Source of the DNA: an archaeon
GTDB lineage: Archaea; B1Sed10-29; WALL01
Direction: 5' to 3'
Assembly (NCBI GenBank): GCA_042584585.1
Contig: JBHOSQ010000011.1
Location: 1 to 35,729, forward strand
DNA length: 35,729 bases
A program made the position numbers and the translations under genes. Below are positions 12,844 to 34,918 of this stretch, in pieces. The first letter of the stretch is position 1. Every line of letters starts with the position of its first letter. Under the pieces are notes generated by a model. That model had not been told where the DNA came from, searched no databases, and was given only the letters and a program-made list of their open reading frames with translations.

Positions 12844-13065
12844 ATGGCAAATGATAGGCCTTTTGACTTTTTGAATGACTCAATGAACAAACCCGTGCTT
12901 GTTCGGCTTAAGGGAACACGCGAGTTGAGGGGAACGCTCAAGGCGTTCGACGTGCACATGAACCTTGTGCTTGACGACGTCGACGAGCTTGAAGACGACA
13001 AAGCCCTCAAGAAGATTGGGTCAATGCTCGTTAGGGGCGACAACATAGTCTTTATAAGCCCTTAA
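12844..13065 (+). CDS. Sm/Lsm-like RNA-binding protein (SmAP1)
   Basis: Sm1 (GTLKAFDVHMNLVL) and Sm2 (VRGDNIVFISP) motifs; GAGGTG RBS at 12831. Confidence 0.95.
   Translation: MANDRPFDFLNDSMNKPVLVRLKGTRELRGTLKAFDVHMNLVLDDVDELEDDKALKKIGSMLVRGDNIVFISP
13051..13057 (+). promoter_or_regulatory. Putative TATA box inside the 3' end of the Lsm gene
   Basis: TTTATAA placed for a start site near 13078-13080; no other TATA-like box upstream of tRNA-Ala. Confidence 0.45.
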
Positions 13066-13077
13066 TCCCCGAATAAA

Positions 13078-13191
13078 GGGAGCGCAGTGTAACAGCGCTT
13101 ACCCCCGGGATTCACACCCTGGGAGACCGACACCGACCAAAGTCGGTGCATCGCAAACCGACGTTGACCCAAGTCAACGTCAAGGGTTAGC
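13078..13191 (+). other. Structured non-coding leader (four hairpins) before tRNA-Ala, containing the repeated GACGTTGAC-N4-GTCAACGTC palindrome
   Basis: Stems agcgc/gcgct, cccggg/cctggg, caccgac/gtcggtg, gacgttgac/gtcaacgtc (13160-13181). Confidence 0.6.
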
Positions 13192-13265
13192 GGGCTCGTA
13201 GCTCAGTCCGGAAGAGTACCCCCTTGGCGTGGGGGAAGTCCCGGGTTCGAATCCCGGCGAGTCCA
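13192..13265 (+). tRNA. tRNA-Ala(GGC)
   Basis: Full cloverleaf; anticodon loop TTGGCGT; G3:U70 pair; TTCGAAT T-loop; no encoded CCA. Confidence 0.96.
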
Positions 13266-13307
13266 CTATAACACTTTTATAAAGAAACAACAGAAATACG
13301 ACACAAT

Positions 13308-13382
13308 GGGCCCATGGTCTAGCCTGGTTAGGACGCGTCCTTGACGTGGACGAGATCTCCGGTTCAAATCCGGGTGGGCCCA
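13308..13382 (+). tRNA. tRNA-Val(GAC)
   Basis: Full cloverleaf; loop TTGACGT; TTTTATAAA box near 13275. Confidence 0.96.
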
Positions 13383-13383
13383 C

Positions 13384-14073
13384 TCATTCATAATAGCCGT
13401 TTAGTTTCCAGAATTCGTACTTCTGCAAATGCCGCTGGTTTTTGAAGCCAATTAAGCCCAGCCATTTGTTCAGCCGCTTAACCCCGTTGATGTCAATTTG
13501 ATATTCGATGGATCTGCCAAACCGGTCATCATAACGTTCTCGTCTAGATGAAGTAAACAGAAGTCCAAGAGCGATTAGTAACACTTTTACGTTCCCGTAA
13601 AGATTGGCGCTTTTCATAGAAATTGTGATTGTGGGGTAATATTTAATCTGTTTATGCCTTTTCTTAAACGCAAGAGAACCATCAGAATCAAACAACCCGC
13701 GCAGGAACGCAATCTTTAAATCGTCACTTCCGGTCATGATGAATTCAGGAACAGCTATGTTGCTTTTTTTGCCACTCTTAACCCCCAATCCCACAAATAA
13801 TGTATGTAGCTCTACAGATGAAAACTCCAGGATTAGTGCCGAACTTTTGGATTTTATTGTGAGGTTATCTAAGCCATAGAGCCGCCTCTTTCTTGGCAGT
13901 AAAATATTTTCAAAGTAATCTAAGTCTAACAAAGCATCCCCACTATAATTGAAGCGATACCTCTTTCTCCCGTCGTAGGCCTCAATCTTCATATGCCCGT
14001 CGCCAATGTGGTGGCCAATGTCCTCAGCCAGCTCAGCACAGAGTGGCGGTGCCTGGATTTGCCTTTTCTTCAT
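13384..14073 (-). CDS. Free-standing two-motif LAGLIDADG (DOD-type) homing endonuclease family protein
   Basis: LAEDIGHHIGDGH and AFLRGLFDSDGS motifs; low GC (20/60 and 22/60 G+C in two hand-counted lines); no intein or intron context. Confidence 0.88.
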   Translation of the reverse strand: MKKRQIQAPPLCAELAEDIGHHIGDGHMKIEAYDGRKRYRFNYSGDALLDLDYFENILLPRKRRLYGLDNLTIKSKSSALILEFSSVELHTLFVGLGVKSGKKSNIAVPEFIMTGSDDLKIAFLRGLFDSDGSLAFKKRHKQIKYYPTITISMKSANLYGNVKVLLIALGLLFTSSRRERYDDRFGRSIEYQIDINGVKRLNKWLGLIGFKNQRHLQKYEFWKLNGYYE

Positions 14074-14170
14074 TGATTAAGGCTAATGCAATGCCCTTTA
14101 AACCACATGAGTTTAGGGCTTGCCGAGAACAACAAATATAAACGCCACTAGCTCCTAATTTATCCTCGCT

Positions 14171-14255
14171 GCTAGGGTGGCGGAATCCGGTTAACGCGCC
14201 GGCCTTGAGAGCCGGTGGGCCTCGGCCCGTGCAGGTTCAAATCCTGCCCCTAGCG
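14171..14255 (+). tRNA. tRNA-Ser(TGA)
   Basis: Cloverleaf with loop CTTGAGA, long variable arm (gggcc-tc-ggccc), G73 discriminator; AATATAAA box near 14135. Confidence 0.95.
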
Positions 14256-14257
14256 CT

Positions 14258-14429
14258 CGAGGCTTTTCTTTGCGGATGGACGTTGACTCAAGTCAACGTC
14301 AAGGGGCTAGAAAAGCCCCGTCGGCAAAAGAAACTATTTGAACAATACAACCTGCCTCTGGGAGCCTTCAGGCTCCCAAGCCTAACGTGCCGCCTGAGTT
14401 TCAGGCGTTATAATCCTGCCCCTAGCGCT
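14258..14429 (+). mobile_element. Miniature hairpin-rich element inserted at the tRNA-Ser 3' end with 18-bp direct repeat
   Basis: aatcctgcccctagcgct at 14240-14257 and 14412-14429; the 154-bp interior is mostly stems and is near-identical to 20755-20854 (inverted). Confidence 0.75.
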
Positions 14430-14430
14430 T

Positions 14431-15510
14431 CTAAGGGTTAGACACTTTCAGAATCTCGAACACGCGGTCAATGTCGTCCCTGAAGACGACGCCGACTATT
14501 TCTTCTTCGCTGATTACGGGCATGGCTTCCAGGCCGTTCCGCATCATTGAATGCATTACGACGGTGACGGAATCGCCGATTTCAGCGGCGCGCACCCGGT
14601 TCGCGATTGCCTTGAGGCTCGTCGTCTTCCACTTCGACTTCGGCACGTGCCTGATGTCGTAAAGGCTCACCAACTCCATGTGCCTGCCGATTGTCGTGAA
14701 CGCAACCAAAGAGCGGGACTTAATCATTTCCTCAATCGCCTTGTCCAATTTGGTTGCGGGCTTCAGCACCAGGTAATTAGCACGGACAATGCGCTGCAGC
14801 GGGAAATGGGCGAGCAGCTTGTTCGAGAGGGCGTACTCCAGCTCGGAAACCGCGCCCAAGTAAACAAAGATTGAGATTACGAGCAGGATGATGTTGTACG
14901 TGAACAAGGCGTAGAGGAACAAAAAGAAAGTGATGACTGTGGAGACCGTGGTCGCGATGCGCGTCGCGTTCACATAGTCCGTGACGAGTGCAAGCGCCGA
15001 GCGGAACACGCGGCCGCCGTCAAGCGGAATCGCGGGCACGAACAAGTTGAACGAGCCCAACAGCCAGTTAAGCCAGAACGCACTCGAGAACAGCATGGTC
15101 GCTAGCGGGACAGCAATGGAGCCGCCCATCGCCGCATTCCAGTCAGCCCACCCCATTAGGAACGGCAATCCAAAGAGCTGGGCGGCCAAAGCAATCAAAG
15201 TGCATAAAGAAAAGTTCAGGAGGGGCCCCGCAATCGACATTTTGAACTCGGAGTAAGGCTTCAGCTGGACTTCGTCCATCGCGGCCATTCCGCCGATTGG
15301 CAAGAGAACGATTTTTTTGACGTTGATGCCGTGCAGCTTGCCGATGATTGAGTGCGAGAGCTCGTGCAGGGTGATTGACGCGAAGAGCACGAAAAGGATT
15401 ATGAGAAAGCTCCAGTCCAGCAGGAGGAAGAGCAGGACAAACAGTATGAAGGATATGTGGAGCTCGACGTCTATCCCCATGACGTTGAATATCTTGAAGT
15501 TGCTCTTCAT
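14431..15510 (-). CDS. Site-2 protease (M50) with C-terminal CBS domains
   Basis: HELSH, LLPIGG, AGP, NLFVPAIPLDGGR; CBS-like C-terminus. Confidence 0.93.
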   Translation of the reverse strand: MKSNFKIFNVMGIDVELHISFILFVLLFLLLDWSFLIILFVLFASITLHELSHSIIGKLHGINVKKIVLLPIGGMAAMDEVQLKPYSEFKMSIAGPLLNFSLCTLIALAAQLFGLPFLMGWADWNAAMGGSIAVPLATMLFSSAFWLNWLLGSFNLFVPAIPLDGGRVFRSALALVTDYVNATRIATTVSTVITFFLFLYALFTYNIILLVISIFVYLGAVSELEYALSNKLLAHFPLQRIVRANYLVLKPATKLDKAIEEMIKSRSLVAFTTIGRHMELVSLYDIRHVPKSKWKTTSLKAIANRVRAAEIGDSVTVVMHSMMRNGLEAMPVISEEEIVGVVFRDDIDRVFEILKVSNP

Positions 15511-15580
15511 CAGTTCTTTTTACCCGGCGGCGCCTTATTAATGGTTACGCTTTTATTTCCCGCGGGAGTAGGGCTTGTTC

Positions 15581-15790
15581 ATGGAACTGACGGGAACGTG
15601 TGACGTCTGCGGCAAGCCCTGCGACCTCAATACTTGCACGAAATGCGGGAAGCGCGTGTGCAAAGAGCACTATGCGGACGGGCTATGCAGTGAGTGCGGC
15701 AAAACCGGAGCCAAGGGCGGGGGCGGCGAGTTTACCATTCCGGACTCGGCTAAGCCAACCACCGTAACTCCGGGGGACACACGGAAATGA
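15581..15790 (+). CDS. Small zinc-finger protein
   Basis: CxxCGK..CxxCGKxVCxxH..CxxC; ATGA overlap with next gene. Confidence 0.8.
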   Translation: MELTGTCDVCGKPCDLNTCTKCGKRVCKEHYADGLCSECGKTGAKGGGGEFTIPDSAKPTTVTPGDTRK

Positions 15791-16689
15791 AGCTGCTGGA
15801 CGCTGCACGGAACGCGGTTGCGCTCTCCAAGCCAAAGAAAAAAGAGTCGCTCTTGGTTGTGACCGACGCCCCAACCCTCGCGATAGGCAAAGCCATTTAC
15901 GAGGCCGCGCAGGAAAAGTGCGGGGCGGAAATTCTGGTGATTAAGCCCACGGGCGGGCACAGCCGTGAGCCGCCAAAGAAAGTGGCCGCAGCCATGAAAA
16001 AAGCGGACATTGTTTATTGCCCAACTAAATACTCGTTGACCCACACCGGAGCGTCTCGTGCCGCGAAAAAGAATGGCGCCACGGTGATTACGCTGCCCGG
16101 AATTACGCGGCCTGTTTTCATTCGAGGCGTGGGGGTGGACTACAAAAAAGTGCGGCGGACCACGAAGCGAATCAGCGACAAGATGCACAAGGCCAAAAAA
16201 GTGCGGATTGTGGCGCGTGGGACTGACGTGACGATTGATGTTCGGGGGTGCAAGCGCGCGGACGACGGAGGGTGGTTCCCGCGGAAGAGCATCCATAATT
16301 TGCCGAGCGGCGAGGCAGCGGTCGCGCCGAAGGGCGCGGACGGGTTTTTCACCGCGAAGGACCTGCACCTGGCGAAAAAAGCGGTGAAATTCACGGTGAA
16401 AAAAGGGAAAGTCGTGGGCGTGGACAGCCCGCGGCTCAAGCGGCATTTGTGGAAAATCAGGAACGCACGGAACATTGCGGAGCTGGGGATTGGGACGAAC
16501 CCGGGGGCGAAACTGTCGGACAGCACGCTGGAGGCCGAGAAGGTGCTTGGGACGTGCCACATTGCGGTGGGCGACTCGAAGAGCATGGGCGGCGCGGTGT
16601 CCGCGGAAATCCATTGGGACTTCATAATCAACAAGCCGACGATTTGGTTCGACCGGAAAAAGGTAATGGACAAGGGGCGATTATTGTGA
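15787..16689 (+). CDS. Aminopeptidase (M29/aminopeptidase T-like)
   Basis: NLPSGE, IAELGIGTN, EKVLGTCHIAVG, IHWD. Confidence 0.9.
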   Translation: MKLLDAARNAVALSKPKKKESLLVVTDAPTLAIGKAIYEAAQEKCGAEILVIKPTGGHSREPPKKVAAAMKKADIVYCPTKYSLTHTGASRAAKKNGATVITLPGITRPVFIRGVGVDYKKVRRTTKRISDKMHKAKKVRIVARGTDVTIDVRGCKRADDGGWFPRKSIHNLPSGEAAVAPKGADGFFTAKDLHLAKKAVKFTVKKGKVVGVDSPRLKRHLWKIRNARNIAELGIGTNPGAKLSDSTLEAEKVLGTCHIAVGDSKSMGGAVSAEIHWDFIINKPTIWFDRKKVMDKGRLL

Positions 16690-17687
16690 GGACTCACAAG
16701 CTTGACGAATTGGTGGGAAAGAAGTGTGACACTGTGTTGATACCTAGTTCGGGGATGGCTCCGGACATGAATTTGCAGTACTATTCGGGGATTGACGCGA
16801 CGCAGGCCGGCGGCGCGGTGCTTTGGAGGGTCGGCAAGGACCCTGTTTTGGTGGCGCGGGACTCGAAACAGAAACGGAAGGCGAAGCTGGTGGTGCGGAA
16901 GGACCAGAAGACGGTTTACCGCGAGCTGAAGAAGCGAAGGGCGAAGCGAATCGGGGTGAACATGGATTATTTGTCGGTGAATGCGGCAAAGAAGATTCGG
17001 AAGGAGAGCGGCGCGAAGTTGGTTGACATCAGCAAGGAATTAAAGCAGGTGCGGGCGATTAAGGAAAAGGGGGAGTTGAAGAGTATTTCACTTGCGTGCG
17101 GGGAGACGAGGAAGGCATTAAAGAAATTGCGGCTGTTGGGCCGCAGCGAAAAAGCGGTTTACGCGGACTTGGTCTCGAGTTATGCGGCGAGGGGGTTGCC
17201 GTTGGCGTTTGACCCGATTGTCGCGGCGGGAAAGAACACCGGATTGATTCACACGCGGCCCACGGCGACGCGGATTGGGAAGCGGGACTGCGTGATTATT
17301 GACACTGGGTGCCGGGTGAATGGCTATTGTAGTGACATCACGATTACGAGGTGTGAGGCGCCGGACTCCCGGACAGAGGGGATGCTGTTGTCTGTGTTCG
17401 AGGCCAGCAAATTGGCGTTGCGTGAGGCGCGGCCGGGGATGAAGGCAAAGGACTTGTGCGAATCAGTGAAGGCGTGTTTTGGCAGGCGCGCGAAGTATTG
17501 GGCGTATGGGTTGGGCCACGGGATTGGCCTGGGCGTGCATGAGTCGCCGAGCCTATCGCTGGAGAGCGATGACGTGCTGGAAGCAGGAATGGTGTTCACG
17601 CTTGAGCCCGGGCTTGTGGGCCCTGGGCAGGGAGCGAGGATTGAGTACACGGGTGTGCTCACAAAAAACGGTTTCAGGGTGCTGTGA
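16686..17687 (+). CDS. Xaa-Pro peptidase (M24B) family protein
   Basis: RAIK..E, IDTG..GYCSDIT, GHGIGLGVHE, TLEPG, ARIE; GTG start overlapping previous stop (GTGA). Confidence 0.9.
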   Translation: MRTHKLDELVGKKCDTVLIPSSGMAPDMNLQYYSGIDATQAGGAVLWRVGKDPVLVARDSKQKRKAKLVVRKDQKTVYRELKKRRAKRIGVNMDYLSVNAAKKIRKESGAKLVDISKELKQVRAIKEKGELKSISLACGETRKALKKLRLLGRSEKAVYADLVSSYAARGLPLAFDPIVAAGKNTGLIHTRPTATRIGKRDCVIIDTGCRVNGYCSDITITRCEAPDSRTEGMLLSVFEASKLALREARPGMKAKDLCESVKACFGRRAKYWAYGLGHGIGLGVHESPSLSLESDDVLEAGMVFTLEPGLVGPGQGARIEYTGVLTKNGFRVL

Positions 17688-19280
17688 ATGAACATTGAGG
17701 AAAAGAAGAAGAGGAGCATGGACGCTTTCGTGGACTTGATTGGCAGGGCCATGAAGTCTTTGGCGGAGAGGCACGAGGGGATGGGGCACGAGTGGCCTGA
17801 CTCCCAGTTTGTCAACGAGCTCGCGGAACAGGCGAACAACGGGCGGCTGCCGGTTGTCGTGGTCGAGGGCGAGAATTTGGGGAAGGACAAGGGCACGATT
17901 CTTGGGACGACTACTGTGATTTACCGGAATGGATTGCCGACGAGCGAGTTCATCAAGGAGCCAAGCAACCTGTTCAATGAGGACGGCACAATCCGCAAGA
18001 GCATGGCGCCGGTGCTTGTGCACGAGTACTGCCACGCGCTCCAGAACATGTCAATGAAGAATTTGACGGCTGAACAGCGGGCGCAAGTCCCAGTCGCCAC
18101 GATTGAGCACGCGAACCAGGCGCTGGCCATCAGCGTGTGGGAAGAAATCAAGAAAATCATGAGGCCGGAGGAGGCAGCGGCTGCGGAGCGGGAGTGGTAC
18201 GCGAAAAAATCCAAGTCGTGGCGCGGCCAGCACAAGGAGGCAGTGAATTGGGTGCCCGAGGCAGAGACCGAGACCATGGCGTTTCAGGACAAGGTGTCGC
18301 GCTATCCCGGCGACATTTTCATCAGGCAGAACAAGGAATGGTTCGAGGACAAGGGCAGAATCAGTGTCCAGATAAAGTCGGATTCCATGCCGATGAAGGA
18401 ATTGGCGAGGCAGTGGGCTGCCGCGAAGGACAGTGTCGACGTGCCTGACGAGATGGACGGCCTGGTCAGGGGGATGCTGCTGAAGAAGGCGGTGCGCAAG
18501 CGCTCGCCAGTCAAGGATTTCATGCGCTACATCGGGGGCGGGAACGGCAAAAGGTCTCCGCTGAAGGACTTCATGGGCTACGTGGGGACAGGCAGCCAGT
18601 CCCAGATTAAGGATATGGCGGGTTACATGCGGGAGAGGGGTATTGTGTCCGGCGAGCTGCTTGGCGAGTTCACGCCCGAGCCGAGGAAGGACGCCCTCAC
18701 GCGCTTCGTCATGGGCGAGCTGAAGCATCGCCGCGAAATCGGTAGGCTGGACGAGATGCGGGAGCGGCTGGATCGGGGCCAGATGGACATTAGGGATCTA
18801 AACGCGCTGCATGACTTCGCTGTGAAAAAGGGTTTCGGCGAGCACATCGAGTGGGCCAGGAAGACGCAGGGCGAGGGCACTAAGGAGTATGCCCACACGC
18901 TGATTGACTTTGCGAAGGTGCACAAGATTGGCGAGCTTGAGCGGGGCCGCATGAGCGTGGAACGGGCGGCCGGGGTGCTTGGGACACGGCTCAAGATTTT
19001 GCACAACACGGGGTATTTCCCGGAGGACCACATCAAGGAGATTTACGAGCGGGAGAAGTACTTGCACACGCCTGAGAGGGAGCGGATGCTTGAGGGAATC
19101 CGTGAGAAGGCGCGGCTCCGTGGAATCAGCAAAGAGATTTCGGAGCGGAAGACAAAGCGCGATAGGGAGTCCAAGGAAAAGACGAAGAAGGGCGGCGGCC
19201 TGAGAGGAATCGGCGGGCGCCGTGGGCGAAGCCAGAGTAGGACTAGGCGGAGTGGAACGAGAGGGCCTATCCCGAAGTAG
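17688..19280 (+). CDS. Hypothetical 530-aa protein with HExxH (zincin-like) motif
   Basis: VLVHEYCHALQ; internal KDFMxY repeats; Arg/Lys/Gly-rich tail; abuts previous stop. Confidence 0.75.
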   Translation: MNIEEKKKRSMDAFVDLIGRAMKSLAERHEGMGHEWPDSQFVNELAEQANNGRLPVVVVEGENLGKDKGTILGTTTVIYRNGLPTSEFIKEPSNLFNEDGTIRKSMAPVLVHEYCHALQNMSMKNLTAEQRAQVPVATIEHANQALAISVWEEIKKIMRPEEAAAAEREWYAKKSKSWRGQHKEAVNWVPEAETETMAFQDKVSRYPGDIFIRQNKEWFEDKGRISVQIKSDSMPMKELARQWAAAKDSVDVPDEMDGLVRGMLLKKAVRKRSPVKDFMRYIGGGNGKRSPLKDFMGYVGTGSQSQIKDMAGYMRERGIVSGELLGEFTPEPRKDALTRFVMGELKHRREIGRLDEMRERLDRGQMDIRDLNALHDFAVKKGFGEHIEWARKTQGEGTKEYAHTLIDFAKVHKIGELERGRMSVERAAGVLGTRLKILHNTGYFPEDHIKEIYEREKYLHTPERERMLEGIREKARLRGISKEISERKTKRDRESKEKTKKGGGLRGIGGRRGRSQSRTRRSGTRGPIPK

Positions 19281-19281
19281 T

Positions 19282-19590
19282 TCACTTGAACGCGTTGCGG
19301 ATGCGGCGGATGTCTTTCATGGCTTTTTCTTCGGCTATGAATACATAGAGGAATAGCACTCCCGCGAAGAACGAGATTATTCCGCCGAATATTTTGAAGC
19401 CGCCGTTGAACACCCCTGAGTCCGAAAGGAAGTATAGTGCCTCGCGGATGAAGAGGAACATCATGGCTATGGACAGGAACGCTGGGATTTTGTTTTTGGG
19501 GTTTGCCCCGTAGAGGTACGCCGACACTAGGAACAAAAGGAAAAAAAACGCTGTTCCGAACGCCTGAATGAACGTCAAGTCGATTTGCAT
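19282..19590 (-). CDS. Small membrane protein (3 TM)
   Basis: Three hydrophobic segments, basic C-terminus; 5 nt downstream of methyltransferase stop. Confidence 0.75.
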   Translation of the reverse strand: MQIDLTFIQAFGTAFFFLLFLVSAYLYGANPKNKIPAFLSIAMMFLFIREALYFLSDSGVFNGGFKIFGGIISFFAGVLFLYVFIAEEKAMKDIRRIRNAFK

Positions 19591-19594
19591 TTTG

Positions 19595-20116
19595 TCACTT
19601 CCTGCAGAGGATTACCGCGCTTAGCTCGTCGTCGGAGCGGCCCACGATTTTTTGGCTGATTACGTCGAGGCCGTACGAGAGCTCAATCAGTTCTTCAAGG
19701 GCTTGGGCCTTGTTGAACACGTTGCAAAACTTTGATATCAGGACATGCCCCCTTGGCTTGAGCACGCGCCTCATTTCCGAGACGGCGCGGCGGGCCTGGG
19801 TGGCGTGGAGCGTGTCTAGGCATACAACAAAGTCGAACGAGTCGTCCTCGAACGGCAGCTTTTCGGCTGTGCAGTGAATGGTGTTGTAGCCTTTTTTGAT
19901 GGCTGTCTTGAGCATGGTGGGGTCTTCGTCGATTCCCACGACGTCAAGGATGACTCCTTTGCCGCGGAGGAATTCCTCGAACAGGGCGGTGCCTATCCCA
20001 ACGTCCAGCACCTTGCCGCGGAGGTTCACTCCCTCCAGCATGGGCAGCATTCCGTCGTATTTGCGGAATTGGCACTCCATCTTCCAGGAGTCGTAGATAA
20101 GGCTTGATATTCCCAC
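19595..20116 (-). CDS. Class I SAM-dependent methyltransferase
   Basis: VLDVGIGT, VVGID, AEKLPFEDDSFDFVV, RRVLKPRG. Confidence 0.88.
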   Translation of the reverse strand: MGISSLIYDSWKMECQFRKYDGMLPMLEGVNLRGKVLDVGIGTALFEEFLRGKGVILDVVGIDEDPTMLKTAIKKGYNTIHCTAEKLPFEDDSFDFVVCLDTLHATQARRAVSEMRRVLKPRGHVLISKFCNVFNKAQALEELIELSYGLDVISQKIVGRSDDELSAVILCRK

Positions 20117-20198
20117 GCAAAACTAAACGCAATAAGGGTTTATAGAGGTTTCGATTCAAACCCCCAAATCTTAAATAAGGTGGCTGCGTTAGTGGTGT

Positions 20199-20714
20199 AT
20201 GGCCATCCACAAGCTAATGGACCACCGCTCAATAACCCCTGCACATCATGAGCTCGTGAAAAGCCTAACCCCACGCGACGCCAGGAACATGTTGGGTGTC
20301 GTCAACAGTAGCACGGCACTGAAGCACGAGAACATGAAGGCCTTGTTCTTGGGCAGCACTGTCGAGATGGAGCGCTACAACAAGAATGGGGGAAAGGCAA
20401 AGGCGTTTGAGGGGGGAGCCATAAGAGTCATGCCTGAGTATTTTGGCGAAATGGACACGTCAAAAAACAAGCAGCGGGCAATACAAAAGTTCCTTAGGGG
20501 CGTGTTGCACCTGAGCAGAGGAGACCTGTTCGAGAGCGCCAAGATATCGTACATCAATGGCGAGGGCGAGCTCATAGAAAACATTGATGTAGGCGGCACT
20601 GGCTCAATACCTGAGGACATAATGGCCCTTACACGCATTCACGTCGAGACACCAAAGAACCGCATTCTAACGCAAGTGATAAAGGATTACCAGAAGGAAG
20701 TGTACGGCCGGTAG
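20199..20714 (+). CDS. Hypothetical protein (171 aa)
   Basis: Clean ORF with TTAAATA box ~25 nt upstream; no recognisable motif. Confidence 0.7.
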   Translation: MAIHKLMDHRSITPAHHELVKSLTPRDARNMLGVVNSSTALKHENMKALFLGSTVEMERYNKNGGKAKAFEGGAIRVMPEYFGEMDTSKNKQRAIQKFLRGVLHLSRGDLFESAKISYINGEGELIENIDVGGTGSIPEDIMALTRIHVETPKNRILTQVIKDYQKEVYGR

Positions 20715-20854
20715 GCGGCCTGCTAATGCAGGCGGTGTGTGTGGAACCTACGATTCCCAGAGGCGGGTTGTATTGTTCAAATAGTTTTGCCGACTGGGCT
20801 TTTCTAGCCCCTTGACGTTGACTTGAGTCAACGTCCATCCGCAAAGAAAAGCCT
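20715..20854 (-). repeat. Second copy of the tRNA-associated hairpin element, directly downstream of tRNA-Gly
   Basis: Reverse complement of 20755-20854 equals 14260-14363 apart from two substitutions and one 4-nt indel; two further hairpins keep structure but not sequence. Confidence 0.9.
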
Positions 20855-20856
20855 AG

Positions 20857-20929
20857 TGCGCCGTGGGGGATTTGAACCCCCGTTATTAGCTTGGGAAGCT
20901 AAGGTCCTGCCAGACTAGACTAACGGCGC
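20857..20929 (-). tRNA. tRNA-Gly(CCC)
   Basis: Cloverleaf gcgccgt..acggcgc-a; loop TTCCCAA; TTCAAAT T-loop. Confidence 0.96.
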
Positions 20930-21005
20930 ATCATTCGTCCGCTGTCGGCAGTAGCCGGCACGGACAACGTGCCAGCTTAGTTTAAGCTGCTTGACTAACG
21001 GCGCA
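20918..21005. repeat. 13-bp duplication of the tRNA-Gly 5' end flanking a 62-bp triple-hairpin insert
   Basis: gactaacggcgca at 20918-20930 and 20993-21005; stems cggc/gccg, gcacg/cgtgc, cagctta/taagctg between them. Confidence 0.8.
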
Positions 21006-21667: not shown

Positions 21668-24535
21668 CTATGCGCAACCAACTGTGAGGGTGCCTGTGCC
21701 CCCTAGGCCCTCAGCGAAACCGCCAATGCGGAGTTTGTAGCAGTTGCCGATTGTCACTGCCGCCGTAACTTCCGATTGTACGCCACAAGAGTCATCGTTG
21801 CAGTCCACGATTACCATCGTGCCACAGTCGCATCCCTCGTAAAGCGCCATCCTCGTGTCGAAGCCGCTGCCGCACGTGTCGGCAGTCAAAGTCCCCGTGC
21901 ACGTGGTAATGTAGTTGAACCAGACGTCGTCGTAGATTTGGTCGCTCCCAAAGACATCGCACAGCGGATCTGGGTCTCCGTCCGTGGTCGCGCTGGTTGT
22001 GACGAATGCATTGGCCCCGTCACTGGCAGCGACAGCAGTAGTACAATCATCCATTATGCATATGGGATCTGCAGTGCAATCGTCGTCGTTGCAGTCTGTG
22101 AGGCCGTCGCAGTCGTTGTCTATGTCATCGCCACAGTCTACACCCACAATCTCGTTGCCTATCTGGCAGTCCGTGTCGTCGCAGTCCGTGTCCCCGTCGC
22201 AGTCGTCGTCGTCTCCGTTGTGGCAGCTTACCTCGGGGTCCTCCGGGGCAGCAAAAGGAGTGCATGGCTGCGCGACGCCATTCACGCACTCGACAATCTC
22301 GCTCTCGCACTCGCCGACCCCACACGTTGTGTTGCCCAAGTCCTCCTCGGAGTGGCAAGTCGAGTCGCAGCAGTCCTCACTCTCAGTGTTGCCATCGTCG
22401 CACTGCTCGCCGTCGTCGACACTGGAGTCTCCGCAAACCCGTGACGTCACGCCACAGTTGGGCAGCGCTCCCTCTGTCACGTCGCCGGTGTTCACGCCAG
22501 GGGCGTCCAAGTAATAAGAGCACGCGGGGTTGTAGTCGTCATAAGTCGCCGAAAAGAAGTTGCCGCCCAGGCCGGTGTTGTTCACGACCATCGTTATGTT
22601 GCCGCTGCAGTTTTCGTACAGCGCAGCCCACGACAACCCAGTTTCGCTGTTGAGCGTGTATCTAACGCCGTCGTTGCTAATCTCGTAAAAGATTGAGATG
22701 CTGCTCACAACTGGCGTGCTGAAGCCGTCGCCCGTCATGTTCACGCGGTACTTCATGTACTGGTTCGGGGACTGGATGGTGTTGTTGACCACTAATTCCC
22801 ACGCGCCAAGCGAGTCATAGGCACTGCCGGTGCTTGCCTCGACAGAGATGGTTCCCCCGTTCAATGTCTCTGACCACGAGGCGCCGCTCCAGTTGCCGCT
22901 CGAAGTCGCGTTGAACCACTCCGACTCGAACGAGCCGCTTGTTTGGTACAGGCCGTCGTTGGTGTATACAACCGTTTCGGTCACGCCAGCATCTTTAGTG
23001 CCCGCCCACGTCACATGGACCGAGCCATCGGTGCCAAAGGCGAGGGAGCGGGGAAGGCCTGTCTGGATGTCGGAGTCCCACGTCATCAGTAGTATATCCG
23101 ACAAGTCGCTGCCGTCCACCCCTGAAATCTTTTTGTAGTAGACTTCCGTCTGACTCTTGTACCAGAACACGTGGACATTGCCATCAGAGTCTACGCCAGA
23201 GGATAAGAGATTCTCGTCGTTGGTGAGTGTGGGGGTTATCGCGACTTCATCAACCAGCGTGGCTGCGTCACTGCCCCGCATCTTTTTGTAATAAAACCGT
23301 GGGAAGATTTGTGAGTCACCCTGCCACACAAGGTGGACATTGTCGCTGGAGTCAACGCCGAAGTTCCAAAACGACGTGTTGGCGTTTTCTGATATGTCGG
23401 TGTTTGCGATTAGAGCGGAGCCGTCTGAGCCGTTAATCTTTCTGTAGACCAGCGTGTCCGCGAGGAGGTCAACCCAAGTCACATGAACATTGTCGTCGCT
23501 GTCCACTCCTAGTTGGGGCCACATGGATCCCAGTAACCCGGAGGGGCTGAGGCGGATTTGGTTAGTGAGGTTGGATCCATCAGTGCCATTAATCTTCATG
23601 TACATGGCGTTGTACCCATCACCGGGCCAAGTGGTTTCCCAGCCGATGTGAACATTGCCTTCCGAGTCCACGTCTAATGTCCTAATGGCAGCGTCGTAAG
23701 GAGTAGAATTCACAGCCATCACAATTCCTGTGAGGTTATTGCCGGTGTCAGGGTCAAACTTCGTATACATTATCTGCTCATCGCCTACTACGTTAAGCCC
23801 GAAATGCAGGTCGCCGTCTGGGTCAACCCCCATTCGATGAGCACCACCATCGGAAGCCATTAGGGGGTGCGTAAGTGTTACTAATACGGGGTTAGTCAAG
23901 TTGGAGCCGTCGGTCGCGTTCATTTTCATGTAATAAACTTCTCTTAACGCAGAGTCACCGAAGCTGACGTACACGCTGTCGTCCGGCGCGACGTTAACCC
24001 AAGTGTAAACCGGGCGGACACTGGGAGTGTGCTGGACAATCCTGAAGTTCATGAGCCCAATGGACGTTGGTCGCGTGCGGTCTTGGGAGCCGCCCTCGAA
24101 CTCGGTTCGTCCGGACTGCGTGACCTCACCAGACTCGGCTCCACTCTGCATGGTCACGTCCGATACCTCGCTGGCCGGCACCAGGATTTCGACCCACCCG
24201 GTTTCCGGGCTGTATAATGTGGTGGCGCCCCTTTTCGGCGGCACGGAGCACACTCTTTGTTGGCTGGGGAGAATGGTTACTTCGCCGCCGAAGTCACAGC
24301 TCGTGCCGTCAGTCGTGTTAAAATATGTTATCGTCAAGTCCCGGTTCCCCAGGTTCACGATTGCCACGGTTCCTGTAGCGGCGTCCAGCAGGTTGGCAGT
24401 GATTGAGATTGGGATTTGGGGCGTGGGCTGCTTGGTGGTGAGCCCTCCAGCCCAAAAATAGATTCCCGCGGCGGCCACCACAGCTATGGCAATCATGAGG
24501 ACAATGCTCACAATGATTGAAAGGCCTCTGCGCAT
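21668..24535 (-). CDS. Pilin-fused modular adhesin (955 aa): class III signal, pilin domain, 7-repeat beta-propeller, Cys/Asp-rich repeats
   Basis: MRRG|LSIIVSIVLMIAIAVVAAAGIYFW; repeats GVDSxGNVHxxW..YxK; CGD..GEQCDDGN..CC..C; CxxGxDxDCDGxxDCxDxDC x2; ATG at 24535. Confidence 0.85.
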   Translation of the reverse strand: MRRGLSIIVSIVLMIAIAVVAAAGIYFWAGGLTTKQPTPQIPISITANLLDAATGTVAIVNLGNRDLTITYFNTTDGTSCDFGGEVTILPSQQRVCSVPPKRGATTLYSPETGWVEILVPASEVSDVTMQSGAESGEVTQSGRTEFEGGSQDRTRPTSIGLMNFRIVQHTPSVRPVYTWVNVAPDDSVYVSFGDSALREVYYMKMNATDGSNLTNPVLVTLTHPLMASDGGAHRMGVDPDGDLHFGLNVVGDEQIMYTKFDPDTGNNLTGIVMAVNSTPYDAAIRTLDVDSEGNVHIGWETTWPGDGYNAMYMKINGTDGSNLTNQIRLSPSGLLGSMWPQLGVDSDDNVHVTWVDLLADTLVYRKINGSDGSALIANTDISENANTSFWNFGVDSSDNVHLVWQGDSQIFPRFYYKKMRGSDAATLVDEVAITPTLTNDENLLSSGVDSDGNVHVFWYKSQTEVYYKKISGVDGSDLSDILLMTWDSDIQTGLPRSLAFGTDGSVHVTWAGTKDAGVTETVVYTNDGLYQTSGSFESEWFNATSSGNWSGASWSETLNGGTISVEASTGSAYDSLGAWELVVNNTIQSPNQYMKYRVNMTGDGFSTPVVSSISIFYEISNDGVRYTLNSETGLSWAALYENCSGNITMVVNNTGLGGNFFSATYDDYNPACSYYLDAPGVNTGDVTEGALPNCGVTSRVCGDSSVDDGEQCDDGNTESEDCCDSTCHSEEDLGNTTCGVGECESEIVECVNGVAQPCTPFAAPEDPEVSCHNGDDDDCDGDTDCDDTDCQIGNEIVGVDCGDDIDNDCDGLTDCNDDDCTADPICIMDDCTTAVAASDGANAFVTTSATTDGDPDPLCDVFGSDQIYDDVWFNYITTCTGTLTADTCGSGFDTRMALYEGCDCGTMVIVDCNDDSCGVQSEVTAAVTIGNCYKLRIGGFAEGLGGTGTLTVGCA

Positions 24536-24611
24536 CGGGATATCCCTAAAAGAAACGCAGTGCGGGTATAAAAGCGTAAGGCTTAAAGACACGGGGCGAA
24601 TAGCTTTTGTG

Positions 24612-25394
24612 ATGCCTGTTGTCGAGAGCGAGTTCGACCGCGTGATTCGGAAGGACCACATCTACGCCATAAACAAAGAGGCGCAGCAGGTCGCGGACAG
24701 GATTGCGGAAAAGCACGCGCTGCCAGACAAAATCGTGCTCAAAATAACCGCTCGGCCCCAGTCCACTGGCACACACATTGACTACGCGGACTGGAAAATC
24801 GTTATTGACTACAATGCGTTGAGCGTGCAGAAGGCATTGATTGAGCGGCGGGCGCTGCGCGGCTTGCTGGCCCACGAAATAATGCACATGGCCCAAAAGC
24901 TGGACGGCACAGAAAAAGAAATAATTCGGTTGTTCACGAAGTCGTTCAGGGACCGTGGGCTCGGCAAGGACCGGTTCGAGTTGATGAAGGCCATGGGCAT
25001 GATTGCCAAGGACGTGTTCGTCAACGACGCCTTGATTGGCGAAGGGTTTTCCGAGGAATTGTTCAAGCACTATTTGATACTCGTGCACTCGCGCGTCAAG
25101 GACAACGTGCTTCCGTTCAGCGAGCTCACCACGGACAGGTTCGACGACTTTTTCATTGCTTTGCTGGGGCTATTCCCCTCTTACGTGCCGTTTTTGCGCA
25201 ATGGGGACGCGGAAAAAGGCGGGATAATCAAGTCCAGCATAAACTGGCATTTCGAGGACATTCCCCACGAATTAAGGGCTGGTGTGGCAGGCGTGGAGGC
25301 CACTCTCCTTGGCGCCAGCCTCACGGAAAAAGGCATCGAGGCCTTTATTGAGAGCTCGCTGACGTGGTACTCGCACCTGCTAAGCAGTAGCTGA
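24612..25394 (+). CDS. HExxH-motif putative metallopeptidase
   Basis: GLLAHEIMHM plus downstream KDVFVND helix; start reassigned to ATG 24612 (TATAAAA near 24567, divergent from adhesin gene). Confidence 0.75.
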   Translation: MPVVESEFDRVIRKDHIYAINKEAQQVADRIAEKHALPDKIVLKITARPQSTGTHIDYADWKIVIDYNALSVQKALIERRALRGLLAHEIMHMAQKLDGTEKEIIRLFTKSFRDRGLGKDRFELMKAMGMIAKDVFVNDALIGEGFSEELFKHYLILVHSRVKDNVLPFSELTTDRFDDFFIALLGLFPSYVPFLRNGDAEKGGIIKSSINWHFEDIPHELRAGVAGVEATLLGASLTEKGIEAFIESSLTWYSHLLSSS

Positions 25395-26358: not shown

Positions 26359-29300
26359 CTACTTGCGGGCCTTTTTCCACGGCTTCTTCACGTACAGCAG
26401 CGCCACGATTCCGAAGACGACCAGTATTACGAACACAACGCCGAACAGACCTAGGTCAAACCCGGCTGTCTGTGGGATCACTGTCGGCACCGGAGTTGGC
26501 ACAGGGGTCGCCGTCGGCACCGGGGTCGGCCCGGACGTTGGCACCGGAGTTGGCGTCGGCAGCGGCACTGCTTCCCCGCCGAACCCGACCGTGAATATCT
26601 TCGGCGCTTTCATGTCTTCCTTGACGATGTCCCTGCTCACGTAGCTGTTGGTCAGGAACCTGATCACTTTCTCGGACTGCGGCATAAACTTGTCGAAGAC
26701 TATGGTGAACACCGGGTCAGATTGCGTCACGAGTACGGTCGCTCCTCCCGCGGTCACGGTGATGCTTGACGCGGAAGACGCGAAGGACTTGGGTATGTCA
26801 ATTACGACTATCTGACCCTCAAGGTCAAACTCTCCCTCGTAGGAAAGTGTGAGGACTATCCTGGACGCCGTAGTCCCAACGTGCTCGATGTCCATCGTGA
26901 CCAAAAGGTTCTCCGCCACTGCCGCGGATGTCTCGGCGATTTGCTGTAATGCCGCCTCGTCGGTGAGGTCAATGCCAGCGTCCTCGAGCGCGTCCTGGAC
27001 CGTTTCGTCGGTACCAAACAAGTCGTTGAAGCCCGCGACGGTCGTGGTAGTTGGTGTGAAGTCCGTCTCGAAGCCATACGTTGGCGCAGGCCCGGGGGGC
27101 GCGCTGTCCGAAGAGCCGGTGCTCGTCGTCGTGGTCGTGGTGGGAGTGGTGGCTGTGGTAATCGTCAGCGAGCGCTGCGCGCTTGTGCTGTTGAAGCCAT
27201 TGGAGTCGTTGCAGGAGACCTTCCACGTGTGCGCCCCGAGCGCCAGGGCGCTGCTGGTGTAGCTGGAGGTGTTGGTGCCCATGTTTGTGTCCACGGTCTG
27301 GTTGGTGACGACGACTGTGCCGTCGACGTAGACTGTGCAGTTGACGCTCGCGCTGTTTTCCTCCACGGAATAGCTAAGCGTGGGCGTGGTGTCCGTGCTG
27401 CTGGCGCCGGCCGCAGGGCTGGTGAGCGTTATTATCGGAGTTGCACTGACTGTAGGCCCTCCTGCCACGGAAAGAGCAGTCCTGCCCGCGCTGTCAGTGC
27501 AGTTTACCTTGAACGTGCGTCTGCCGTCCGCCACCATGTTGGTCGTAATCGTGCCGTTGTGGTTGGTGGTGTTGGTCGTGATGACGGTTGTGCCTGACAC
27601 TGCGGTGCCCAGCTCGGACACGAAGCAGTCAATCGTGGTGTCGTTGTTGTCGGCGACTTCCGCAGTAATTGGCACGTTCCATGTGGTGGTCGTTGCCGGC
27701 GAGTACATGGTGACCGTTGGATCGGTCTTGTCGAGCCAAATGTTGGTGAGCGTGGTGGCTGTCTCGGAAGCGGTAGCCCAGTCACTTGAATAGTACTGGA
27801 GCGTGTTATTGTCCTCATTGGTTATAGTGAACGTGCTTGCCGTAACCCAACCACCACTGTTGAGATTGTACTTGGTTAGCTTGCAGCCGCTGCCGTTGGT
27901 GTTGTCAGTACATGTGAGCTCGACGGGTATGTCCGCGCCGTACCAGCCACCTGTGATGTTGATTGTCGTGGTTGGCGCGACAGCGTCTTGCGTGCCCGTG
28001 TACACGGTGGACTTGGTCTCGTTGCCGGCCAGGTCCGTGCAGTTCACCCACGTATAGTAAGTGCCGTCGGAGTAGTTCTGGCTTACGGTGAAGTTGGTAT
28101 CTGTGTTATTGGCAGTGGTGGCATTGGTGTCAAAATTCTCTAGGGAGTGGAGAGTGCCGTTCACATAGGTGCCGTTCATCCAGCCCGCGCAAGACAGGGT
28201 GTTGGAAACAGCATCAACTGCCTTGAACGTCATCCAGCCAGTTGATAGGTTTGTTGCGTTGGACCAAGCCACAGACGGCACGCTTACGGTGAGTACCGGC
28301 GCGTTGCTGTCGAGCATCACCGTGATGTTGCCCAGAGACTCAGTGTTGTTCGCGGTGTCATTCGAGTAATACCGAATGTACGTGTAATTCTGTTGAGTTA
28401 TCTGGAAATTCGGCGCTGCGTATGTGATACTTGGCGTGCAAGTGTTCGTTGTATCGACACAGTACTGTGTCACGTTGCACCCCACGCCCAGCCCGTCGTT
28501 GCATGCCAAAGTCACGTTAACGTAGGTTTCTGTGTTCCAAGTGCCAAACGTATACGCTGCGCCGGTTGAGTCATTGCCTGTAGGTGTCGTTGTGGGCGCG
28601 ACCACGTCCCTGCGGACCTGGATTGCGGTGTTGTGCGTGTTGCCGGGTGGGGCGCCGCCGCCAAAGTCCCACGCGTAAGCGGTTATGGTGTGCAGGTCGC
28701 CAGAAAGCGTTACGTTCAGGGCGTCACACGTTATTTCTGTCCAGTCCGCCGTGGTGTTGGCGCAGTTGGCCTGGATACCACTGTTGTTGAGTGATGTGAG
28801 CACTGTGCTGTTCATGTACAGAGTCAAGTTGCTTACTTGGCTGCCGGTGCCGTTGACCGTCACGTTGACGAGGATGCTGTCAGCGTTCGTCGCGGTGTTG
28901 TTCGGCGGAGTCGTGATTGTCACAATCGGGTTTTCGTTGTCGCTCGCGTTGTACTCCGAGAAGTCCGCGACCGTGAACGCCAGGTCACCGTTCGGCACCA
29001 TGAGCCCACCCATGTTGTACGGGGTCTGCGCCGTGAACACAACACTGCTTATGGCGCCAGAGCCGGTGCCGGAGTGCGAAATGTTCGGCTCGTGGCCGAA
29101 CGGCAATCCGTACAGGGTTATGTCGGTGCTGGTGTTCAGCACTCCGAACGCCGTGCCGTTTACGAATATGGAGCTCTGGTCCCACGTCTCTGGCGCGCCT
29201 ATGGACACGGCAATGGCGTCCTGCAGGTTCTCGAGCGCCTGATACGTGCTTTCATCAGAGAAGTTCAATGCGCCGAACTCCAGCTTGAGCACTTTCTTGA

Positions 29301-32544: not shown

Positions 32545-32589
32545 ACAAAGACACCTCACAAGCAGCTAAGTGTTAAGTATATATAAATA

Positions 32590-34797: not shown

Positions 34798-34867
34798 TGA
34801 ATCCTACCGATTGACACTACGTAGAAAGAATATATAAATAAAGGGGGTTTTTCAACGCCATTTTCCA

Positions 34868-34918
34868 TCGAGGCTTTTCTACCGAGCAGCCGCTAGGCTG
34901 TAATAGAAAAAGGGTCGG
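34868..34918. repeat. Probable degenerate member of the hairpin element family
   Basis: tcgaggcttttct identical to 14257-14269; closes with tagaaaa and gtcgg as in the tRNA-Ser copy, around a different inner hairpin (gcagcc-gcta-ggctgt). Confidence 0.55.

Follow-up and report, generated by a model that had tools for sequence, protein, structure and literature searches.

The window analysed here is the 35,729-nt contig JBHOSQ010000011.1 of an archaeal genome, and it carries strings of short non-coding hairpins at the ends of its tRNA genes. These hairpin strings are probably nested families of small, structure-defined, non-autonomous insertion elements that duplicate their target at tRNA ends. 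Filled and empty sites in related genomes, direct repeats of tRNA ends behind the hairpins and the restricted spread of the individual modules support this conclusion. The window is contig C11 of the genome G000, which comprises 1.02 Mb in 32 contigs with 55% G+C and is 84% complete. G000, G001 and G002 form the genus g1 (completeness of the three genomes, 84–89%), with G002 as the sister species of G000. The entire G002 genome was fetched and the orthologous loci were compared with those of G000.

Module families and their distribution

The strings are composed of recurrent modules. Hairpin A is a 22-nt perfect palindrome, GACGTTGAC-N4-GTCAACGTC. On copy numbers, hairpin A is a species-specific burst in G000, because 20 exact copies are present in this genome versus one exact and four near copies in G002. 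A few G000 variants are altered in both arms with the pairing preserved. Module B is a stem of ~50–75 nt with conserved arms, (A)ACCCTTTTCCTG ... GGAAAAGCGTYGRYGGAAAA, that enclose a variable inner hairpin. Its motif is found five times in G000, six times in G001, 17 times in G002, four times in G005 and once each in G003, G020 and G031. The B copies of five genomes align arm to arm and vary in the inner hairpin. Judged by this distribution, module B is older and family-wide, and the modules differ in age and spread.

In the D-C element (~60 nt), a variable hairpin D is joined through the linker CTA-ACGTGC-C to hairpin C, whose stem has 7 bp. Hairpin D occurs with three types of flank. A total of 33 D-C copies were counted in G000 and 30 in G002, after two false module C matches in G002 (C2:18975 and C9:63355) had been dropped. 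The exact D-C pattern occurs in three of 41 relatives (29 times in G000, twice in G001 and 23 times in G002) and in none of the other 38. With up to two mismatches allowed, it is found in three of the 13 genomes of the order, all of genus g1, and in none of the other ten. Viral contigs gave no match to the pattern. Thirteen metagenome contigs matched, ten of which belong to the same genus; the remaining contigs, L131, L136 and L142, were rejected as chance matches in unrelated GC-rich coding DNA.

The modules are combined in several ways. Hairpin A can sit inside the loops of B and D as well as within the D-C linker. Composites that recur include B'-linker-D-C and a G-rich 'E' hairpin followed by D-C. 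Copies lie in both orientations, antisense included. Leader hairpins end 8–12 nt upstream of about a dozen tRNAs.

On G000 contig C6 (4–22 kb and 24–35 kb), eleven same-strand D-C copies lie between genes for small predicted membrane or secreted proteins. Several of the downstream gene starts repeat, and an adjoining block of ~43% G+C holds long open reading frames (ORFs) and is followed by rRNA genes. An integron attC array on C6 was considered and rejected: no tyrosine recombinase was found in G000, and the spacing of the copies reflects small-gene cassettes. Two G000 contigs, at C2:121772-121807 (contig end) and C8:1-54 (contig start), break inside one and the same composite of hairpin A and module C, which indicates that the elements break assemblies.

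Filled and empty sites

Six clean pairs of filled and empty sites were observed among the related genomes. Between two convergent genes of G000 (C1:54232-54311), a 62-nt D-C element without a clear duplication occupies a position at which G002 has a 16-nt spacer. The tRNA-Glu(ctc) gene of G002 carries a 61-nt D-C element with a 16-nt duplication, its tRNA-Arg(cct) gene carries a B module in the 5' part with a 15-nt duplication, and its tRNA-Gly(gcc) gene carries a second insert of 120 nt with a 13-nt duplication; each of these sites is empty in G000. G000 also provides the empty site for two metagenome contigs with 13-nt duplications, L133 (63 nt at tRNA-Met) and L137 (~125 nt at tRNA-Ser(gct), with flanks that are 89–94% identical to G000). 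In the other direction, the hairpins that G000 carries in the tRNA-Ala(ggc) and tRNA-Gln(ctg) leaders, as well as in the Gln-Val and Lys-Gly spacers, have no counterpart in G002. An assembly artefact is ruled out, since the same junctions are present in independent assemblies (the tRNA-Ser junction of G002 and the metagenome contigs). The aligned loci show that the hairpin strings are inserted DNA. A first-pass annotation of the window had proposed a dispersed mobile family with empty sites to be sought in relatives. Both parts held: 20 exact A copies and 33 C copies are spread genome-wide, D-C is restricted to the genus, and the empty sites exist.

Target duplications and choice of target

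A duplication was scored if an exact direct repeat of at least 10 nt began no more than 8 nt past hairpin C. Such duplications accompany 8 of the 33 copies in G000 (longest 29 nt) and 14 of the 30 in G002 (longest 39 nt), versus 30 of 2000 random positions in each genome and 17 of 2000 in a separate G000 comparison. Their length is variable, from 10 to 39 nt, in line with the variable-length target duplication claimed in the first-pass annotation. Both junctions contain 0–7 variable bases and the ends are ragged; by eye, the termini of the other delimited copies differ among themselves.

Each tRNA was also checked for a repeat of its own end no more than 400 nt away. ARAGORN predicts 39 tRNAs in G000 without introns and 45 with introns allowed, and calls with introns longer than 200 nt were removed from the scan. 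Five 3'-end duplicates and one 5'-end duplicate were found among the 45 tRNAs of G000, and fourteen 3'-end and four 5'-end duplicates among the 46 tRNAs of G002. One 3' flag in each genome is the T-arm of a neighbouring tRNA (Arg cct in G000 and Phe gaa in G002), and the cross-tRNA null of the scan also gives some long matches, which stem from shared T-arms. In 18 3'-end events, the exact duplicated part measures 10–20 nt and the inserts measure 61–294 nt. On its left side the duplication begins within the T-loop, T-stem or acceptor strand, and on its right side it stops at −3 to +6 relative to the tRNA end. In 17 of the 18 events, hairpin C immediately precedes the remnant, once interrupted by a nested insert. 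The 5'-end duplications run from the tRNA 5' end into the D-arm. Insertion leaves one complete copy of the tRNA gene and a decaying remnant behind hairpin C. In one species, a hairpin insert followed by a remnant of the gene's own 3' end is present at about 13 of the 46 tRNA genes; insertion is thus frequent and aimed at essential genes, which are nevertheless left intact.

The elements are enriched near tRNAs. For module C, 13 of 33 copies in G000 (39%; null 19%, binomial p 0.004) and 16 of 30 copies in G002 (53%; null 12%, binomial p 9e-8) are no more than 300 nt away from a tRNA, and for hairpin A this holds for 13 of 20 copies in G000 (65%; null 19%, binomial p 7e-6). The null gives, for all bases outside long reading frames, the fraction situated at most 300 nt from a tRNA. 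Among the C copies that have a tRNA as upstream neighbour, 20 are in the same orientation and four in the opposite one. Ends of protein genes were hit as well. At C13:13231, a 14-nt duplication covers the last codons and the stop of a convergent gene, and at C8:10462, a duplication of ~29–35 nt covers the end of a small ORF and is present in a decayed form in a metagenome relative. The tRNA targeting proposed in the first-pass annotation is borne out by the enrichment, with the correction that targeting is not limited to tRNAs and that the 3' ends of protein genes are also used. Because the duplications are long and the spacers are very short, presumably only those insertions survive in which the duplication passes the gene end.

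Elements within the window

The features of the window are listed in Table 1.

Table 1. Coordinates of tRNA genes, hairpin elements and duplicated tRNA ends in the window.
Feature	Position	Strand	Details
tRNA-Ala(ggc), structured 5' leader	13080..13191	+	Fold −41.7 kcal/mol, z −5.2; hairpins ~13103-13123 and ~13131-13148; hairpin A 13160-13181 and AAGGG tail
tRNA-Ala(ggc), intact	13192..13266	+	ARAGORN; Rfam 61.7 bits
tRNA-Val(gac), intact, module-free	13308..13383	+	Stop codon of the LAGLIDADG ORF adjoins the 3' end
LAGLIDADG-type ORF, free-standing, 229 aa	13384..14073	-	Pfam LAGLIDADG_3, E 9e-8
tRNA-Ser(tga), intact	14171..14257	+	Last 18 nt (14240-14257) are copy 1 of the duplication AATCCTGCCCCTAGCGCT
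Composite insert, 154 nt	14258..14411	+	B with nested A, linker, D, C, TTAT: B outer stem 14261-14269/14309-14317; hairpin A 14279-14300 within the loop; linker 14318-14358; hairpin D 14359-14378; CTAACGTGC to 14390; hairpin C 14391-14407; tail TTAT
Remnant of tRNA-Ser(tga), last 18 nt	14412..14429	+	Copy 2 of AATCCTGCCCCTAGCGCT
tRNA-Gly(ccc) trailer, B(A)-linker-D composite	20755..20855	-	Hairpin A 20814-20835
tRNA-Gly(ccc), intact	20856..20930	-	20918-20930 is copy 1 of the 13-nt duplication GACTAACGGCGCA (leader base −1 and tRNA positions 1–12)
D-C element type 3, 62 nt, antisense to tRNA-Gly	20931..20992	+	Hairpin D 20937-20965; ACGTGC 20967-20972; hairpin C 20973-20989; tail CTT
Remnant of tRNA-Gly(ccc) 5' end	20993..21005	+	Copy 2 of GACTAACGGCGCA
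B module (CCCTTTTTCT ... TAGAAAAGCCTCGATGGAAAA), intergenic, away from any tRNA	34850..34915	-	Aligns with B of four other genomes

Two inserts of the window are delimited by duplications. At tRNA-Ser(tga), the 18-nt repeat flanks the 154-nt composite, and its first copy spans the T-loop to 1–2 nt beyond the 3' end. G002 shares this insert, with the same right junction and with a different inner part and D stem, and the counterpart of the remnant has decayed there to gacaCTGCCCCTAGCGCT. The B'-linker-D-C composite of this insert is also present at other tRNAs. At tRNA-Gly(ccc), the 13-nt repeat flanks the 62-nt D-C element; G002 and G001 likewise contain 5'-end remnants upstream of this tRNA. 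The trailer of the same tRNA is 96% identical to the tRNA-Ser insert and has another hairpin in place of C; a related metagenome contig has a complete B-D-C at tRNA-Gly(ccc). The hairpin leader of tRNA-Ala(ggc) stops 10 nt short of the tRNA, and the G002 counterpart is a plain promoter followed by ~25 nt, free of hairpins.

The architecture described in the first-pass annotation was found again in nearly every detail. It had placed module A at 13160, 14279 and 20814, and all three copies are present (13160-13181, 14279-14300 and 20814-20835). The outer stem of module B, GGCTTTTCT/AGAAAAGCC, is present both in the interval 14261-14317 (14261-14269/14309-14317) and in the tRNA-Gly trailer, and the degenerate B copy suspected near 34868 is a real minus-strand B module at 34850-34915. 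Module C, which is ACGTGC with a 7-bp stem and a GTT loop, is present at 14385-14407 and 20967-20989. Overall, the earlier coordinates hold to within 1–2 nt. The duplicated tRNA ends reported after module C (18 nt at the 3' end of Ser and 13 nt at the 5' end of Gly) are both there, and three of the four tRNAs carry modules, tRNA-Val being the module-free one. All four tRNAs are intact, with Rfam RF00005 scores of 58–65 bits.

The modules of the window fold more stably than shuffled sequences (z −3.2 to −5.7; z −2.0 for the copy at 34850). An Rfam search over the window matched only the four tRNAs at the gathering score and gave nothing credible in 13050-14450 at E values up to 10, and no terminal inverted repeats (TIRs) were found in the two duplication-delimited inserts, only internal hairpins; the absence of TIRs had been noted in the first-pass annotation.

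The trailers of tRNA-Ser and tRNA-Gly constitute a 111-nt inverted repeat (14253-14363 versus 20755-20861) that is 96–97% complementary. tRNA-Gly(ccc) and its flanks (tRNA 20856-20929) are inverted relative to G002, and the flanking genes are colinear. The inversion together with the inverted repeat suggests recombination or conversion between element copies. The elements would thus mediate local rearrangement, as the inversion of tRNA-Gly between the two species illustrates.

The window further contains two very long minus-strand ORFs, 21668-24661 (997 aa) and 26359-32559 (2066 aa), with internal repeats of ~150–165 nt. Archaeal marks in G000 include an archaeal RNase P RNA, an LSM protein and tRNA introns that adjoin the anticodon. 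The placement of G000 as DPANN-like is tentative, because it is based on a single titled relative of one G000 protein, which is a metagenome-assembled genome of the Nanobdellati (DPANN) with 34% identity.

Stem structure and covariation

The stems vary with their pairing preserved. In 76 copies of hairpin C, pair 2 is A-T in 54 and G-C in 22, pair 3 is G-C in 58 and C-G in 17, and pair 6 is G-C in 44, T-A in 24 and C-G in six; this set required at least six of the seven pairs and is hence biased towards pairing. With an IUPAC pattern that does not force complementarity, the R/Y and S/S positions are complementary in 54 of 54 matches and the K/M positions in 52 of 54, as read by eye. Hairpin D combines constant flanks with many different stems, all of which pair. 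The compensatory changes that the first-pass annotation had noted between two C stems are thus seen in C and in many D stems genome-wide. Such covariation fits selection on structure, either for propagation or for an RNA function.

Module B as a tRNA intron

Module B also occurs inside tRNA genes. In G001 (C5:1841-4859, at ~1500-1800 therein), a B module of ~79 nt lies one base 3' of the anticodon of tRNA-Gly(ccc), a position read by eye against the intron-less G000 gene; the G002 gene is likewise intron-less. Upstream of this tRNA, G001 has further B copies in tandem, each with the tRNA's first 17 nt behind it. In G020, which belongs to another family of the same class, an intron built on the B arms occupies the canonical position of tRNA-Arg(cct) (C15, 1448-1584), as predicted by ARAGORN and supported by alignment. 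At the predicted splice sites of B, a 4-bp helix, UUCC/GGAA or CUCC/GGAG, can be drawn by eye as a candidate for the bulge-helix-bulge motif.

Module B therefore has two forms, an insertion with flanking duplications at tRNA ends and an intron at the canonical position in two tRNAs. In a recent preprint, the arrival of archaeal tRNA introns is called open (10.64898/2026.10.13.758758), and an older study proposes mobile-element integration as a route to tRNA fragments and intron gain (PMC3293823). The double role of B thus offers a concrete and testable route for the arrival of archaeal tRNA introns. The likeness to archaeal bulge-helix-bulge introns lies in the canonical position of B in two tRNAs; the difference is that most element copies are located outside the mature tRNA and are flanked by duplications.

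Readings of B and of hairpin A as C/D-box, H/ACA or K-turn RNAs were rejected, as the box motifs are lacking by eye. At C4:11768-12170 of G000, the introns of tRNA-Trp (59 nt) and tRNA-Arg(cct) (82 nt) resemble C/D-box guide RNAs by eye.

Search for a mobilising enzyme

The first-pass annotation had listed HUH/Y1 transposases, a casposase and a reverse transcriptase (RT) among its candidate mobilisers, and none of these was recovered. Pfam profile searches of G000 (84% complete) gave no matches to RVT_1, Y1_Tnp (PF01797), Phage_integrase or Cas1; the Y1 search was confined to G000. Cas1 (PF01867) and RT (PF00078) had no matches in six of six genomes of the family. IS110, DDE_Tnp_1 and rve had no matches in the three genus g1 genomes, these being the families of transposase searched there. 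Within the genus, TnpB-like genes occur only in G002, where four are present, none near a C copy. A TnpB guide-RNA reading, with the hairpins as scaffold and the flank matching the target, was rejected: G000 has no TnpB, and the genes of G002 are distant from the elements.

The LAGLIDADG ORF of the window, whose cleavage followed by break repair was a further candidate of the first-pass annotation, is itself an insertion relative to G002, in which tRNA-Val and tRNA-Ser are 141 nt apart versus 785 nt in G000. The gene is single-copy in G000 and has four distant paralogs in G002, one of which lies 34 nt from the 3' end of a tRNA-Met. Of the five LAGLIDADG genes, two adjoin tRNA 3' ends and not one has a tRNA remnant at its flanks. 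A motif, GGG(C/G)TTGCCGAGAAC, precedes two of them.

G002 also contains inserts of kilobase size that are flanked by remnants. Contig C12 (~74.9–103 kb) bears ~9 same-strand copies of the tRNA-Thr(cgt) 3' end over ~28 kb, flanked by arm-like inverted repeats, and looks like a tandem array of integrated elements. The array holds a tyrosine integrase (C12:78360-79529; Phage_integrase, E 5e-24), two AAA_14-DUF4143 ATPases, an Exo_endo_phos protein and carotenoid-type genes. At tRNA-Gly(ccc) of G002, a 2.3-kb insert starts with the B' left end of the small composites. At E 1e-5, tblastn gave no match in G000 for either ATPase or for the Exo_endo_phos protein. The ATPases, the Exo_endo_phos protein and the integrase of these kilobase inserts were therefore not adopted as mobilisers: they are not obvious drivers, because G000 has no matches and nevertheless has perfect duplications and the A burst, with the reservation that the genomes are incomplete.

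Alternative explanations

Several observations weigh against insertion elements as the explanation. A selected RNA would also be consistent with the sense bias, with left ends rich in T and right ends made of a hairpin plus T, with covarying stems and with a module B that is conserved across families. The geometry of the duplications, from the T-loop to the 3' end, is that of integrase attachment (att) sites, and a tyrosine recombinase lies beside the tRNA-Thr array of G002. A duplication is not detectable in 25 of the 33 copies in G000 and 16 of the 30 in G002, and the clean insertion at C1:54232-54311 has no clear one. Neither a mobilising enzyme nor an intermediate was found in genomes that are 84–89% complete, and mobile-element genes often escape bins. 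On C6, the repeated downstream gene starts make it probable that part of the copy number was contributed by segmentally duplicated gene cassettes. Finally, DNA palindromes can acquire compensatory changes through template-switch correction even if no selection acts.

The strongest alternative treats the modules as functional RNA: selected leader or trailer elements, such as terminators, 3'-end stabilisers or processing signals, that have spread by gene conversion and have acquired the duplications as side effects. The 20 to 4 preference for the sense orientation downstream of tRNAs points in this direction, as do left ends that are T-rich like archaeal terminators and the TT that often follows hairpin C. 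Many copies lie exactly at gene 3' ends, leader hairpins stand 8–12 nt before about a dozen tRNAs, the stems covary and the B arms are conserved across genera. Such functions are hard to reconcile with orthologous tRNAs and gene pairs in the sister species that do without the modules, with the rise of A from one to 20 copies in one species and with the absence of D-C outside the genus. The elements also occur in both orientations, antisense included, match no Rfam family and carry target duplications and remnants, which are signatures of insertion. A functional RNA origin is unlikely on this balance, and the two readings are compatible, as inserted elements may have been co-opted. A narrower version, in which the leader hairpins are required by an unusual RNase P, was rejected: an archaeal RNase P RNA is present in three of three genus g1 genomes, and orthologous leaders are free of hairpins.

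A second alternative regards the inserts as scars of miniature or deleted tRNA-integrating elements that were moved by a tyrosine recombinase, with the duplications as attL/attR cores. It draws on the extent of the duplications, which reach from the T-loop to the tRNA 3' end as att sites do, on the Phage_integrase gene of G002 beside ~9 copies of the tRNA-Thr(cgt) 3' end with arm-like inverted repeats, and on the 2.3-kb tRNA-Gly(ccc) insert of G002 that shares the B' left end. In a published model, mobile-element integration is also connected to tRNA fragments and intron gain (PMC3293823). In contrast, D-C elements of ~60 nt are found at 18 or more different tRNA ends and at protein-gene ends with a site-specific duplication at each. 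An attP-bearing element cannot explain D-C, because each of its many targets has its own duplication. Inserts of 59–85 nt are presumably too small to be recombining circles, 5'-end duplications exist, and one insertion is free of duplication. No integrase was found in G000 despite its perfect duplications and A burst, and none of the listed C copies of G002 adjoins the integrase gene at C12:78360-79529. Integrase scars are quite improbable as an explanation.

RNA-mediated retroposition, in which trailer or intron RNAs from the tRNase Z site to hairpin C were copied into nicked tRNA genes, is very improbable: it would account for the conserved 3' end, the variable 5' extent, the variable duplication length, the ragged junctions, the left ends that start where tRNA trailers start and the additional existence of B as an intron (splicing predicted), but RVT_1 was not found in six of six family genomes, antisense insertions exist and the remnants lack CCA, so that the mature tRNA is not involved.

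Proposed mechanism

Insertion elements remain the preferred reading, and for their movement we propose either insertion at nicks that are widely staggered or template switching during replication, with hairpin-forming DNA as donor and target. These routes are favoured because the ends are ragged, TIRs are absent, the duplications are variable and no transposase, RT or Cas1 was found (in G000, no integrase either). The agents would be host replication and repair enzymes or a nuclease not yet recognised, and a classical transposase is not favoured. A structure-directed first cut near the T-arm or D-arm and a second cut 10–20 nt away would produce the observed duplications. The elements, which lie mostly in sense downstream of tRNAs, would be transcribed together with the tRNAs, as leaders or trailers that RNase P and tRNase Z trim, and a B copy that lands beside the anticodon would be tolerated as a spliced intron. 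Taken alone, the proposed insertion mechanism is speculative and rather doubtful.

It is conceivable, if still doubtful, that the elements represent a class of mobile DNA without a dedicated transposase. Donor and target DNA that form hairpins, including the T-arm and D-arm of tRNAs, would drive their insertion by host enzymes through staggered breaks or template switching, and this process would also seed archaeal tRNA leaders, trailers and, where a module comes to lie next to the anticodon, new introns. If this were true, the genus would be a living model of how archaeal tRNA genes become interrupted.

Comparison with known systems

The elements resemble miniature transposable elements with inverted repeats (MITEs) in being small, non-coding, dispersed and intergenic, in their presence/absence polymorphism and in their lineage-specific bursts. 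They differ in the absence of TIRs, in their ragged ends, in variable duplications of 10–39 nt where those of MITEs are short and fixed, and in that no parent insertion sequence or transposase was found. Repetitive extragenic palindromes (REPs) and bacterial interspersed mosaic elements with RAYT, and IS200/IS605-derived palindromes, share the short palindromic units, the modular composites and the hairpins near the element end. The present elements have long duplications and a strong association with tRNA ends, with no Y1 in G000 and TnpB in G002 only; to our knowledge, REP/RAYT and IS200/IS605-derived families make no target duplication.

Casposons and CRISPR spacer integration generate duplications of ~14–15 bp or more, and some casposon families integrate at tRNA 3' ends. 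The long duplications and the use of tRNA 3' ends are thus shared with casposons. Cas1, however, was not found in six of six family genomes, the present elements have no TIRs and variable duplications, and they are ~100 times smaller. Another analogue is provided by the double-hairpin elements, GC clusters and repetitive hairpin-forming elements of mitochondria, which are tiny mobile hairpin pairs of compact genomes, often beside tRNA genes and endonuclease ORFs. Those elements reside in organelles and not in a free archaeal chromosome, and we know of no comparable long tRNA-end duplications for them. Retroposons of the short interspersed element (SINE) type likewise have variable duplications, a conserved 3' end and a variable 5' extent, but no RT was found in the six family genomes.

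Tyrosine-integrase elements that integrate into tRNA genes share the T-loop-to-3'-end duplication and the tandem layers of remnants. In contrast to them, a single family uses many targets here, each with its own duplication, the inserts are tiny, and 5' ends and protein-gene ends are also used. Bacterial restriction-modification units and IS1630 have long variable duplications without a known enzyme (PMC2853133). The restriction-modification units described there are similar in their long variable direct duplications and in inserts without a recognisable mobility gene; they differ in being gene-sized and bacterial, with duplications above 30 bp and with neither a hairpin architecture nor a preference for tRNAs.

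Within the terms searched, no description of comparable archaeal elements was found in the literature. In the way they work, the elements are like other small non-autonomous repeats (MITEs, REPs or SINEs), but they lack the defining features of MITEs, REP/RAYT, IS200/IS605 derivatives, casposon derivatives and retroposons. Absence of TIRs, ragged ends, duplications of 10–39 nt, a preference for tRNA ends and absence of a recognisable transposase, RT or Cas1 are not combined in any known element type, and the mechanism may therefore be new.

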